The notes under the pieces are model-generated. The model had not been told where the DNA came from and did not search any database. It was given only the letters and a program-made list of their open reading frames with translations. From Fistulifera solaris (lineage: Eukaryota), in NCBI GenBank assembly GCA_030295235.1, contig AP026162.1:620001-684000 (forward strand): a stretch of 64,000 bases of DNA. Reading direction: 5' to 3'. This document shows positions 26,152 to 32,100 of this stretch, piece by piece. Numbering within the stretch: position 1 is the stretch's first letter; each line of letters starts with the position of its first letter. The position numbers were made by a program, and so were the translations under genes.

Positions 26152-27062
26152 ATGTCCAGCTCTAGCGAATTTATCATCAACTTCCTTGCCGGAGGTGTGT
26201 CTGGTGCTGTTGCCAAGACTGCTACGGCTCCCATTGAGCGTGTCAAGCTCCTCATCCAAACCCAGGATGCTAACCCCAAGATTATCAGTGGAGAAGTCGC
26301 CCGTTACAATGGCATCGTCGACTGCTTCTCTCGTGTTGCGAGCGAACAGGGTGTCAAGGCTTTCTGGCGTGGAAACTTGACCAACATCATCCGATACTTC
26401 CCTACTCAGGCCTTCAACTTTGCCTTTAAGGACACCATCAAGGCCATCTTCCCCAAGGCTGACAAGAACAAGGAGTTCGGAAAGTTCTTCGCCATCAACA
26501 TGGCCTCTGGTGGTCTTGCCGGAGCCGGTTCGTTGTTGATCGTCTACCCCTCGATTACGCCCGTACCCGTCTTGCCTCGGATGTCGGTTCCGGAAAGGCC
26601 CAGTTCAGCGGCCTCTTCGACTGCCTTAAGCAGACCATCAAGACCGGTGGTCTTGCTGCCCTCTACAACGGTATCGGTGTGTCAATTGTTGGTATCATCC
26701 CCTACCGTGGTGTCTACTTCGGATTGTTCGATACCATGTCCGGCTACAACCCCTACCAGAAGAGCGATAACAATGTGCTCCGTGCCGGATCCAAGTTCGT
26801 GTGCGCTCAGTCATCTGCCATCGCCGCCGGTTACGCCTCATACCCCTTCGACACCGTCCGTCGTCGTCTGCAGATGCAGTCCGAGAAGCCCAAGGCGGAG
26901 TGGGTCTACAGCGGAACCATGGACTGCTTCGGCAAGATCGTCGCCAACGAAGGTGCGGGTGCTCTGTTCAAGGGTGCGGGTGCCAACGCCCTCCGTACCG
27001 TCGGTGCGGCCATGGTGCTTGTGCTTTACTCCGAGATCACTGCTTTCTTCAACGCCAAGTAA
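26152..27062 (+). CDS. AAC: Mitochondrial ADP/ATP carrier (1 apparent frameshift)
   Basis: [61 protein letters not shown]. Missing C at 26547-26550 restores [10 protein letters not shown]. Strong C-ending codon bias. Confidence 0.96.
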
Positions 27063-28364
27063 GCTCATGTAAAGCGGATAATGATGTAATCGCGATGTTT
27101 GGAATGACTATTGTCGTCTTTGTGGTTATTCAACGTATTCTATTGCCAAGGCGGACTAACTAGTATCAACTGCAACAATATTATTGTGTATTAGTTGATC
27201 TACATGCAAAGGAACCTGGAACTGGATTGTTGTCGTCAAAACACTTAACACAATTTCTCGGACGTGAACGAATGGGTAACTGGCATTAGACGAAAAAGCC
27301 CCAAGGATATTGTGTCGCGCATCGCTCCGTCATTCCTTTCTGATTTAGCATTAAAAAAGTTTTTGATTGTCTCATCGTTTCCGGAGCAGATGATTCGACA
27401 TGATATGTTGTCGATCAATTCCAAACATCGAGTGTACCTGGTATTCCTTTACATGCAATATTAAAAAGACAATGCTTTGTGTTTAAAAGGCAACATGTAA
27501 GCACGGTCTTGTCAGAAAAGAAGTTTTTTATGAAGAAGATGGAAAGCATACGCCACTTCCTGTGTAATACTTTGTAAAGATGCAAGATCTAATACAAGCG
27601 AGCAATTCTCTTGCTCTTTGGCAAATCAGCACCTATAGCTTGCTCGATACTTCCGACAAACTGCTCATTTGGTGATCCATTGATTCACTGGTCGATTGGA
27701 AGCACCAGTACGGAGTATCGCATGAAGACCGAGAAAGGCAAGAATGGCCGAATCTTGTGAGGGGGAACATTTCTCGGTAAACAAAGTGCTGCTACATCCG
27801 TGTCAGTATCGACGCCATGAACAAGATTTGAGACCGACTTGCTCCCGACTAGCGATCCTATTGATTAAATCAAGTACGACGTAAGAATGAAATTCCTCAC
27901 GAGGCTTGCAAGTTGTTGCAAGCAACAGAGAATAAGAGCACATTTTTGGTTTTTCTTGTTGCGTGTTGCGTGGATTTCGTCCGCTTCTTCCTTTTTCTCC
28001 GTTTCGCGTTTTGTGACCCTATGTACTTAGACCACGAGTGTCTCTGCTCGAATGTCTTATCGTGCGTTCCACATCTACAGTAGAAAAATCTAGCTACACT
28101 AATTGTCGTTTGACTGTAGGATGGAAAGTATCGGGAAGATTCCCGTTTCTTCTTTTCTATCAGCTGGAAAGTAGGCAGCCAATTCGCGTGGGAAGAACTG
28201 CTTCCATTTTCTGCCCCCAAGGGAAAAACGGCTTTACCAGTACAACAACAAACAAAAATACCAACGCCCCTTCAACTTTCATTCTCATAGTTATCATCAT
28301 AACATAACCGCAACAACAACCATCCAAGTCCGGAAACACGCCGCACTTGCCTATCTAATTAAAT

Positions 28365-28975
28365 ATGAATCGAGATTGGGGAATGAATCAGGTTTTGAAC
28401 GAGTCACCGCCTCTATCCGCTGAGGATTACGAATACGAAGAATGTGCTCCGTCACGACGGGAAAGCCCGATAGCGTTTTGCGGAAAGGGATTTAAACCAG
28501 TTCTTGATGTTCTAGTCAAAGGAGATCATGCTCCCCTGCCGGCAGATCGCTTGGCTCGGAAGCAGCGGATAGTTGGTAGAAGAGGAGGCGTCGGGCAATT
28601 GCAGCTCGTAGAAAACGCCGCCAGGGCGGCACTCGACACAAACGAATCCGATGACGAAACCGGCATCCAGCGGGAGAGCTTACCAAATTCTTCCTTGAAC
28701 GGTCCACAGCCCATGGCGGTAGATCGAACGAGTCCGCGCAAACGAGCCAGAATGGGATCGACCCATGCTGCAGAACCGGATCCTTCCGTCGCGGCAGCTG
28801 GCAAACTTTTGAAGGTTTATCCACACTGGATGACAAAGATGAAGAAGATCCTGTTCGAGGTGTTGTTCGGAGAACGTCGCGGAGAACTTCGTACGATAGT
28901 AAAATCAAAGATGCAAAGGACGATTTCTTGCTCTTATCAGCTTATGCGACGAACGCATCGCAGCTGAAGCGATGA
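28365..28975 (+). CDS. Hypothetical protein (possible frameshift near 28808)
   Basis: 200-aa ATG-initiated ORF. Adding one T at 28807-28810 gives the C-terminus KLFEGLSTLDDKDEEDPVRGVVRRTSRRTSYD..QLKR* followed by AATAAA. Confidence 0.6.
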
Positions 28976-29136
28976 ATAAAATATATGTGAAATAAATTCG
29001 AATGTCTGTTTTAATTAAAAATTAAACTTTAGAACACTATAATGTTAAGTCATTACCAGAGTTCTTCAAATAAACCGAAGGATGCGCCAAGACTTCGAAA
29101 ATCTTCGTGTACACAAACTATTCCGCGTTGTTAGCA

Positions 29137-32100
29137 TTAGCCACTGTACTCCCAAAGCTCCTTATCCATAGCGATGCGGCCCCATTCTTTACTTACAATC
29201 GAAGCGTTGTAGATATCAGTGTTCGTTAAAAAGCTGAATATATTCAGGACGGTGCGCTTGGGCTGTTTGGGTTTGCCGAATAGCGTCAACATCTCCCTCG
29301 GATTTGCTTTTGCGCGACGACGAGGGATCGAATTCTATCCGTATTGGGGGCGTTCGAGGTGCAGTATTCTTCGATGTAGTGACCGGCGGTGAAGTTTCTG
29401 GTGGACAAGATCGCTTCTTCGACGACGCAAATTTAGTCTCCGTGGCATTTGTTGACTGGTCCTCGGGCTTGTAATGTTGCATCATGGCGCGCATTTGCAT
29501 TTCGTGAGCGCGCTGCTGCTGACCGAACATAGGTGTGACTGGAGGTACACCCATTGTGGAATAACCGATATGACCCATCACCGATGAAGTCATGTAAGCC
29601 GGGTGCATATATCCACGGTGAGACATAGTTCTTTGTGGCATTTGGTGACCATGAACCGCCCCAGCTGGCACTTTGCTGCTTCGAATGTTGGCGGGGGAGG
29701 CAGCAGGGCCCTGCTGCGGGGCACGCTGTCCTTGCCAAACTTCATGAGCAACTCGTACTGCATACTCGGCGCCCTTAGAATCCTTCATTTTTCTCCTCTT
29801 GTCGATCAGCGTCTGAGACCCAGCCAGGTTTTGACAATCCACGCATTTACAGCTCGGTCCGCAAAATTGCCCGGCAACAAAACACTTTGACAAAGAAACA
29901 AACAAAAATGAGAGGTGACAGGATAGCAACAAGAAAAGGTGCGAAAATACTTACATCGCAATACTTTTTGAGGCAAAATGACCGCTTGCATCTGCAGCCG
30001 CTCGTACTTTGTTGAAAGGCTGTGGGGTTCTTGGCGCGAGCACTCTGAATCGCTTTCTCTCTTAATTCATCAAACTGAGGAAGGTTGTTGCAGTCCACGC
30101 ATTTGCATCCGTCACAGTACACTTTCGCGGAAAAGCAGAAGCAATAAAGCTTGAGACATTTCGAGTTTTTACAGTTACAGGACCTCTTCCCTGAATCATT
30201 TTCTTTCGTTGCGCTGTCTTCGCTAGCCGGAACGCTCTTCTGGGACGTTTTGACCGTACTCGGTGGGATTAGTTTCGGTACTTCTGCCGGAGTTGAAGAA
30301 GATAGGGCGGTCTGAGTTTTGGGTGTGGAGACGGGTTGTGTATTCTGAAACACATGAGGTTGCGGTGCGTATCTGTGGGCTTGGAGATGGGGTTGCGCGT
30401 ACATGTGTGGCGGATAAGCAGTTCTATAGGCCTGTGCTGAATGGTATGCTGCGCTTGAGGCTCGCATCATGTTATTGATCCCTTCGAAGGACTGCTGTGT
30501 ACTTGCATACTTCGTTCCGACTTGGCCCAGTTCAAGACGCATCCCGTTCCGGGGAACAGATGGCATCTGTCGATTCAATGTGCCATCGTTCCACAATTTC
30601 GTTGGCTTAACTTCACTCGAAGGTAGAACAGGAGATGCTTGCAGAGAAGTCGTAGCGCCGATTCGAGAAGCACTAGACATGGCGCTTTTCGAGGCTGAGA
30701 CTTTGGTAGCGGAAACTTTCGTAGCCTTTCGGACAGGTGACCTGGTCACTCCCTGCAGCCCTCCAGAAGGTGGTACGGTGATGAAGTCATTCAGAAAGCC
30801 TTTGAAGGAAGAGTCATTTTTCGAAGATCTTTGTGGTAACGGAGGAGCATCGATTTCGTCAGAGCTCGATCGCGTCAAGGAGATCTTTGGATGGTGTTCG
30901 TCGCCCGAAGGTTCAAAATAGACAAGCGATGGACCGACAGGTGAGAAAGCATCCGCCAACTGTGGATCAGGCGTTTCCACTATCCCAAAACTGGATGATA
31001 AACCCAAATGCGGTGAAGCACGAAGAGGAGATCTATTAAACCCTTTTCCAGGAGGCGAACGAAAAAGATTTGAGGTAGATTTGTTGCTCGGTGTCATGGC
31101 CATATTGACCCCGCCCAAACGTGTCAAAGGAGAGGTTCGCGCAGACGTGGCAAACAAATCGTCGACAGGCGGTGGAGAGCGCCAAACTGGTTCATGCTCA
31201 TAAAAAATGTTGTAGTGACCTTGTGGATGGGGTCGTCCATGAAAGTGTCCGGGTGTCGCGTGCGCAGTCGACGTGCCTTTCTGGTGCCACTCTCGATCTT
31301 GACCGTAAGGAGTTGAATAATCGGAAAAGTGCATGTATTGGTAATGCGAGAGCGGCGGGGAGCCGTGAGGCGAAGCAAATAGAGACGAGGGCCGATGATC
31401 ACGGTAACCTGAAGGCGATCCTCTTGGCGGTGAATCGCTTTCACCGAACGAACCAAGAGGGCCTTCCCAGATCTCAGTGGATTGAAGGGGGTCGTGGTGG
31501 CTGCCAGTGGTGTCCATATCGTTCGAAAGGGGCGCTGAAGCTGAAGCCTGTGTTGTCGAACATTATGAATAAAAGGGTGGAAAAAGCACGCGACAAGATT
31601 CGCGCCATTTTGTTGATAATAGCATTTGCAGTCGTGAATACGTCACAATTAGCAAAAACCGTTGCAATCGGTAATCGTGATACCCGTTGAATGGCAATAA
31701 ATTCCGTATGGACGAGTTTTTGACCGACCATAGTAATCATGTCAATGTATTAAACAGTATCGTGCGTAGCAAAAATACATAATGAAATAATAACAATGAC
31801 AACGGTGATAATCATCAACAAGGCAATCGTGCAACGAGAAAAGGAGGGAGGAAATGCGAATTCGAAACAAGGCAAGTGAGAAGAAGTTGATAAAAATACG
31901 ATCAATAACAGCTTGCGAAAAGTTCATCCGATTTAGATGTAAATCATTGTGAGAACGTACCTTTGGAGATTTCCGGGGCATTTTGGAGCGATGAATAGAA
32001 GATACATTACTTCGAGCTGGCGTTGCATCTTGATCACGGCGCGATGAGCCATGATCCTCTCCTTTGCGTGACTGGACTTGGGCATCGGCTGGCAACGTCG

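Follow-up and report, generated by a model that had tools for sequence, protein, structure and literature searches.

A CRC DNA-binding protein ending in an F-box in the diatom Fistulifera solaris and in other stramenopiles

The window analysed here is a stretch of 64,000 nucleotides from contig AP026162.1 of the diatom Fistulifera solaris. Three open frames of its minus strand share a single gene. The frame 29847-31562 (571 codons) encodes the motif CXC1 and half of CXC2; the frame 29216-29950 (244 codons) provides the remainder of CXC2 and closes on the false ending QLFNEH*; the frame 29137-29334 (65 codons) encodes an F-box tail ending in ...ELWEYSG*. The first two are separated by a 70-nt GT-AG intron within CXC2 (29885..29954) and the last two by a frame break, at which the G-run at 29294..29297 is two bases short. 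As calculated from the exon coordinates, the repaired gene comprises 521 + 249 = 770 codons and its product is about 770 aa long. Exon 1 (29955..31517, 521 codons from the first ATG, a start that agrees with the N-terminus of the protein P0002) encodes an S/P/T-rich low-complexity N-terminus, CXC1, the hinge and the first half of CXC2. Exon 2 (29137..29884, 249 codons with the two missing bases counted, plus the stop) encodes the end of CXC2, a basic helix, a linker and the F-box. The protein is thus built from about 440 low-complexity residues, the CRC domain, the basic helix with a linker of about 170 residues, and the F-box, the stop codon lying 4 residues past the last Trp of the latter. 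The basic helix, LIDKRRKMKD (29780..29809), is conserved among diatom orthologues. The segment preceding the F-box, RIEFDP...RKSK (29297..29341), is the place at which 88 of 152 relatives have an NLS-like basic patch, which may act as an NLS. Downstream, a 202-codon ORF of the plus strand (28359-28967), without Pfam match, converges on the 3' end of the gene and ends 170 bases from its stop. On a larger scale, positions 21587-43911 of the window possess a colinear second copy on another contig (C2) at 81-88% identity, as expected for the two subgenomes of a hybrid diploid.

The F-box frame had first been proposed by a first-pass annotation of the window, which joined it to the CRC gene by removing one surplus G at about 29296. 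The restored frame was inferred correctly, but the error runs in the opposite direction, as two bases are missing. The second genomic copy of the gene, on contig C2 (87% identity), has 2 extra bases at the break position, and its exon 2 is a single open frame from CXC2 into the F-box. The C-terminal 75 residues of this copy match at 100% those of FisN_1Lh290 (Fistulifera solaris, 762 aa), a record for which TCR and F-box-like domains are already precomputed. Sequencing runs gave the same result, since CC is inserted behind 29294 (plus strand) in all four runs examined (of 8 listed; 3 studies). The depth of the insertion is 11.2/11.2 in run X1, 10.5/10.5 in X3 and 2.4/2.4 in X6, the last being too shallow if taken alone; in X2, it accounts for 12.6 of a depth of 28.2, and the remainder comes from the other copy, which has its TT after 29291. 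The shortened form present in the window was seen in no contig of these four runs, of which X2 is possibly the window's own source while X1 and X6 are environmental metagenomes from other studies. All four therefore contradict the uncorrected frame ending in QLFNEH*. A contig of X3 lacks precisely the stretch 29885-29954 (with CT..AC as its ends on the plus strand), so that this run behaves as RNA, even if no listed run is recorded as such; the contigs of X3 span 29071-29465 and 29712-30362, leaving 29466-29711, between the CRC domain and the F-box, unbridged. Finally, the NCBI protein P0003, near-identical to the window's allele, is intact and reads ...KSEGEMLTLFG at the junction, one residue more than the correction first proposed. 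The frame break is an assembly error in which two G's were lost from the G-run, and the CRC domain and the F-box belong to one gene, interrupted only in this assembly.

Other explanations of the break were considered. A single surplus G is ruled out by the C2 copy, the four runs and P0003. An intron could not be made responsible for the frame change: the sole nearby GT donor (29290) leads to a 28-nt intron that deletes the conserved FG lead-in of the F-box, and no such skip occurs in any contig of the runs examined. It is highly improbable that the window copy is a true frameshifted allele in which the F-box frame survives as a relic. This explanation would agree with the presence of the break in the window and with the comparison of the homeologs, which differ over 51 tail codons by 8 synonymous and 8 non-synonymous changes, a constraint no stronger than in the rest of the gene, although this comparison is uninformative on selection; but the two bases are present in every run examined, including contigs near-identical to the window's allele and the spliced RNA-like run, P0003 is intact, and a neighbouring gene shows the same kind of shortened homopolymer. 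The latter gene, which encodes an ADP/ATP carrier 2.7 kb away, has a frameshift at 26545-26550 (plus strand), where a C-run lacks one base relative to the C2 copy, probably through the same type of assembly error. Homopolymer loss thus recurs in this region, and frameshifts in this assembly need read support.

The CRC domain is readily recognized. The window gene upstream of the tail matches Pfam TCR with E=1.8e-13, the match in P0002 falls into two stretches (E=9.2e-22) corresponding to two tandem CXC motifs, and the domain of the C2 copy aligns to human LIN54 (5FD3) with E=1.9e-16. CXC1 (30084..30188; Pfam TCR and alignment to 5FD3) contains the Tyr matching LIN54 Y536, and the intron-split CXC2 (29828..29999; Pfam and LIN54 alignment) the one matching Y610. 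Between them, the hinge core KNPTAF (30015..30032) aligns to RNPEAF of LIN54, in a linker 13 residues shorter than that of the human protein. A strict hinge core is kept in 104 of 152 two-CXC relatives, and both DNA-reading tyrosines, their positions counted from the LIN54 alignment, in all 152. Two tyrosines of LIN54 are described as entering the minor groove of TTYRAA DNA (PMC4974476). Judging from these conserved residues, the two tyrosines of the diatom protein would most likely allow its CRC domain to recognize promoter elements that are AT-rich and TTYRAA-like, in the manner of LIN54.

F-boxes serve as docking motifs for Skp1, an adaptor of ubiquitin ligases. The frame 29137-29334 reads as quoted in the first-pass annotation and exceeds the cut-offs of both Pfam families, F-box-like (E=6.5e-9, 35.9 bits for a cut-off of 24.3) and F-box (8.1e-6, 26 bits for a cut-off of 20.5), which means that the tail is not a chance resemblance: the hidden F-box is genuine. 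It occupies 29140..29292 and includes a family-specific FG lead-in (29275-29280) and the motif QPKRT (29251-29265), which replaces LPxE. When a profile of the family tails was compared with the PDB (42 sequences, E up to 1), the best matches were the F-boxes of FBXW7 (2.3e-9), KDM2B (1.6e-8) and Skp2 (3.4e-8). An AlphaFold2 model of the tail consists of four short helices (pLDDT 87.5). Its top Foldseek match is Skp2 (1FS1; rmsd 1.2 over 38 columns), with an E of 0.028 that is not significant, and the top three Z of a VIA fold search, 5.7-6.0, are modest; the matches listed by both searches are Skp1-F-box complexes. Residues 11-56 of the model overlay Skp2 109-149, and the Phe of the FG lead-in coincides with the aromatic residue that leads into known F-boxes.

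The tail of the C2 copy was also modelled in complex with the canonical Skp1 of the same genome, of which exon 3 was used (the first two exons being left out) and without alignments. The pair scored 0.90 against 0.02 for the best control, with contacts agreeing at at least 97% between runs and a partner pLDDT of at least 83; among 78 solved complexes, 51 attain the mark used for such models, as do 2 of 108 mismatches (71 of 105 and 2 of 126, respectively, for eukaryotes). The FG lead-in, near-invariant in the family (97% and 96% of 141 rows), lies within the modelled Skp1 interface. Skp1 and the F-box being a textbook pair, this result demonstrates likeness to solved structures rather than binding. 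Taken together, sequence, fold and complex model support the interaction with Skp1 that had been suggested for the tail, and it is very probable that the terminal F-box would bind this adaptor. The genome also contains a divergent second pair of Skp1-like genes (L020:1168-1653 and L021:1168-1647, on contigs C19 and C20), 52% identical to canonical Skp1 and without the C-terminal ENKW, which is a possible alternative partner for the F-box.

The architecture was then followed across lineages. A search with the CRC region returned 95 proteins, 17 of them with a precomputed F-box-like domain and 23 reaching at least 20 bits with a local model of the tail. Among the best 150 of 5,689 matches to the sequence from the CRC domain to the end, 105 combine CXC and tail, 15 are short tail-only pieces and 30 show CXC only. 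A profile of 43 tails detected 74 proteins among 7,999 candidates scored; TCR is precomputed for 58, and the remaining 16 are pieces of 118-294 residues with no further domain listed. In total, CXC and the F-box tail occur together in 174 of the 309 proteins retrieved, which is not a frequency because near-duplicates are included and the queries came from this family. The F-box is never N-terminal to CXC in these 174 proteins. It ends at most 10 residues from the C-terminus in 115 of them and at most 50 in 153, and a folded substrate-binding domain C-terminal to it is absent from every one. As the local tail model was iterated on its own matches, Pfam served as an independent check: in 30 chosen, mostly divergent members, F-box-like exceeds its cut-off in 20, and all 30 have an E of 0.0025 or better. 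The proposed architecture of a CRC protein with a C-terminal F-box is correct, and its orthologues carry the tail. Reads favouring the short frame, the lack of an F-box HMM match or orthologues devoid of the tail, which the first-pass annotation had named as grounds for abandoning its reading, were not encountered.

A survey of diatoms had been suggested, and the tail does occur in them (Fistulifera, Fragilaria, Nitzschia, Chaetoceros, Epithemia, and Cylindrotheca in a model with a cut tail), but its range is not limited to this group. It is also carried by other ochrophytes, namely the bolidophyte Triparma, the chrysophyte Mallomonas (two proteins), Pinguiococcus and Chrysoparadoxa, and by the oomycetes Phytophthora, Peronospora, Plasmopara, Hyaloperonospora, Bremia, Pythium, Globisporangium, Saprolegnia, Achlya, Aphanomyces and Thraustotheca. 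The tail of Incisomonas marina (Bigyra) is weaker, with 20.4 bits in Pfam, below the cut-off; its cluster representative obtained 39.4 bits on the first local model, built without it. In the CRC-region search, the F-box tail is absent from the named CRC proteins of plants, animals, red and green algae and Stylonychia. A protein labelled Tiarina fusus, a ciliate, carries the tail and nests among diatoms in the CRC tree, and is presumably a contamination by prey. Within the diatom group, three rows with CXC only end right where the tail should start and look truncated, and the pelagophyte protein P0025 clusters with a tailed row although it has no tail itself. In trees of the CRC domain built from a selection of 22 tailed and 20 untailed rows, a single clade of the 22 tailed rows was neither rejected nor demonstrated (p-AU 0.63 in the quick and 0.053 in the careful analysis), the deep nodes not being resolved by these trees. 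The CRC/F-box fusion is an old and retained feature of stramenopiles; if the Incisomonas tail is real, it dates to the base of this group.

The Fistulifera solaris genome contains four pairs of CRC genes, and in the flanks covered a single pair shows the tail; it is absent from the ORFs located within about 1.5 kb of the CXC matches of the other three. These untailed pairs are L009/L010 (C10, C9), L007/L011 (C2, C1) and L006/L008 (C45, C46), and two of them show three CXC matches. Different CRC fusions were encountered among the matches (P0026, P0031, P0034, P0023, P0080, P0084): HSF with CRC in Discostella and relatives, and fusions with a WRKY19-type zinc finger (under the cut-off), a CW zinc finger and ankyrin. 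A search of the ESM Atlas with the tail alone returned only short unnamed clusters and generic F-box clusters.

What the F-box does at the end of such a protein may be approached through the positions at which F-boxes touch Cul1. Positions 2 (Pro) and 4 (acidic) of the F-box are reported to contact Cul1, the Pro being important for Skp2 and Fbxo4 (PMC3237615). In the 174 members, Pro is present in 58 and the acidic residue in 17, and the two are never found together; 127 members carry Lys or Arg at position 3. The Fistulifera solaris protein keeps the Pro at position 2 and has Thr at position 4. Two features of canonical SCF receptors, the pair of Pro and acidic residue and a substrate-binding domain after the F-box, are consequently lacking here. 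Of the recruitment of SCF to promoters envisaged by the first-pass annotation, the Skp1 step is supported in silico, full SCF being less supported on both these counts. The favoured reading, to which we would give an even chance, is that the protein acts as a promoter-bound structural Skp1 adaptor rather than as a classic SCF receptor, since nothing follows the F-box and the Cul1 signature combining Pro and acidic residue has been lost in the family. Skp1 would then be retained on the promoters to which the protein binds, serving a transcription complex as its stable adaptor or assembly partner. Loading of Cul1 would be weak or regulated, as opposed to a constitutive ubiquitin ligase; this is the weakest step of the proposal. 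In line with such a role, fission-yeast F-box proteins without the Pro are described as mostly binding Skp1 outside SCF (PMC2910015).

The missing signature is nevertheless weak evidence for a use outside SCF, in view of known exceptions: beta-TrCP is reported to bind Cul1 without H1 contacts, via Skp1 alone (PMC3237615), Pof9 to be an SCF member despite having no Pro (PMC2910015), and the F-box of KDM2B to engage CUL1, KDM2B and FBXL19, both CXXC-bearing, being described in SCF/CUL1 complexes (PMC7000146). With these exceptions and the Pro kept in the Fistulifera solaris protein, a DNA-targeted SCF ligase or a self-destruction timer, as originally envisaged, stays a close rival, if a tentative one. 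Loaded with Skp1-Cul1-Rbx1, the protein would ubiquitylate its promoter neighbours (E2F/RBR, histones, LIN9) or else its own long disordered N-terminus, resulting in a turnover timed by the cell cycle. The Skp1 interface of the complex model, which is canonical, fits this possibility; the absence of Pro plus acidic residue from all 174 members, the frequent Lys or Arg at position 3 and the lack of any folded substrate-binding domain behind the F-box do not. It is also conceivable, but unlikely, that a module derived from an F-box has been re-used for a partner other than canonical Skp1, either the C-terminal bundle of LIN9, with the tail replacing the C-terminal domain of LIN54, or the divergent Skp1-like paralogue. 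The genome does encode a LIN9-like protein as well as the second Skp1-like pair, the residues conserved in this family, FG above all, are its own, and the tail occupies the position of the LIN54 domain that contacts LIN9. However, the hydrophobic core that faces Skp1 is preserved and is modelled with low error, and the Phe of FG corresponds to the aromatic lead-in of ordinary F-boxes.

The structural Skp1 adaptor favoured above can be considered in the context of the MuvB/DREAM complex, of which this paralogue, one of the four CRC gene pairs, is a candidate LIN54 subunit. In human MuvB, the C-terminal domain of LIN54 is reported to cross-link to that of LIN9 (PMC9424243), and the F-box holds the C-terminal position where animal LIN54 has this LIN9-contacting domain. 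A pair of LIN9-like DIRP genes is found in the Fistulifera solaris genome, in which E2F/DP genes are also present. One of the DIRP genes (L022:1369-1923, on contig C6) has a weak match, over the cut-off, which is followed by a stretch that appears Tudor-like by eye. LIN52 was not detected, the search giving no match anywhere. On family members, a model of the LIN54 tail built from one sponge sequence did not exceed 3 bits, but it is insensitive because plant CRC proteins also score below 4 bits. A bolder proposal is that stramenopiles rebuilt DREAM/MuvB, LIN54 having swapped its LIN9-binding tail for an F-box, with Skp1, with or without Cul1, built into the cell-cycle promoter complex; in diatoms and oomycetes, a sequence-specific DNA-binding factor would then be its own ubiquitin-ligase receptor at CHR-like promoters. 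This scenario is doubtful on present evidence. The family offers a single gene, present across the lineage, through which to study how cell-cycle transcription may be coupled to Skp1 and ubiquitin in diatoms and oomycetes, possibly in another manner than in animals and plants. Retained over such distances at the extreme end of a DNA-binding protein and lacking a substrate domain, its F-box moreover provides a clean test of this motif outside the usual SCF layout.

Automatic annotation already displays the two domains together. TCR and F-box-like are precomputed for many oomycete proteins, and two clusters of the ESM Atlas (60 and 77 members) have TCR in 100% and F-box-like in 95% and 82% of their members, respectively. 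Proteins of this architecture are named 'CRC domain-containing', 'hypothetical', 'metallothionein-like' or 'Lin-54 protein' in the databases. Some names of family members (P0021, P0289, P0309) are misleading, such as 'cation transmembrane transporter' in Fragilaria and 'metallothionein-like protein' in Plasmopara and Phytophthora. No published description of the CRC/F-box fusion was found in the open full-text literature, subscription journals and supplementary tables being outside the scope of this search; the matches it gave (PMC6927116, PMC11855123, PMC9773994) were judged off-topic, and two papers on stramenopile transcription factors (PMC4222949, PMC11267843) make no mention of CXC, tesmin or F-box.

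By every testable feature, the protein described here is both a CRC protein and an F-box protein. It shares with LIN54 and the plant TSO1-TCX proteins the two CXC motifs and their hinge, both DNA-reading tyrosines and a long unstructured N-terminus, and differs from them in that its C-terminus is an F-box. C-terminal F-boxes are already known from human FBXO30 and FBXO40 and from poxvirus ankyrin proteins. Skp2 and FBXW7, as canonical SCF substrate receptors, have the F-box sequence and its three-helix fold in common with the tail, whereas here neither WD40 nor LRR nor any further domain comes behind the F-box, which closes the protein, and LPxE is changed to QPKxT. Non-SCF partners of Skp1 provide another parallel. 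Ctf13 and Rcy1 of budding yeast are reportedly such partners, with an F-box devoid of the Cul1 signature. The fission-yeast proteins Pof6, Pof8, Pof12 and Pof13 are likewise described as Skp1-binding F-box proteins without this signature (PMC2910015); none of these yeast proteins is fused to a CRC domain, and the Fistulifera solaris protein still has the Pro. By analogy, the CRC/F-box protein would work most like KDM2B and FBXL19: these proteins and KDM2A (CXXC + PHD + F-box + LRR) also combine a DNA-binding zinc domain with a Skp1-binding F-box in a chromatin protein, although their CXXC fold, which recognizes unmethylated CpG, is unrelated to CRC, and their F-box is followed by the LRR that is missing in the CRC/F-box family.
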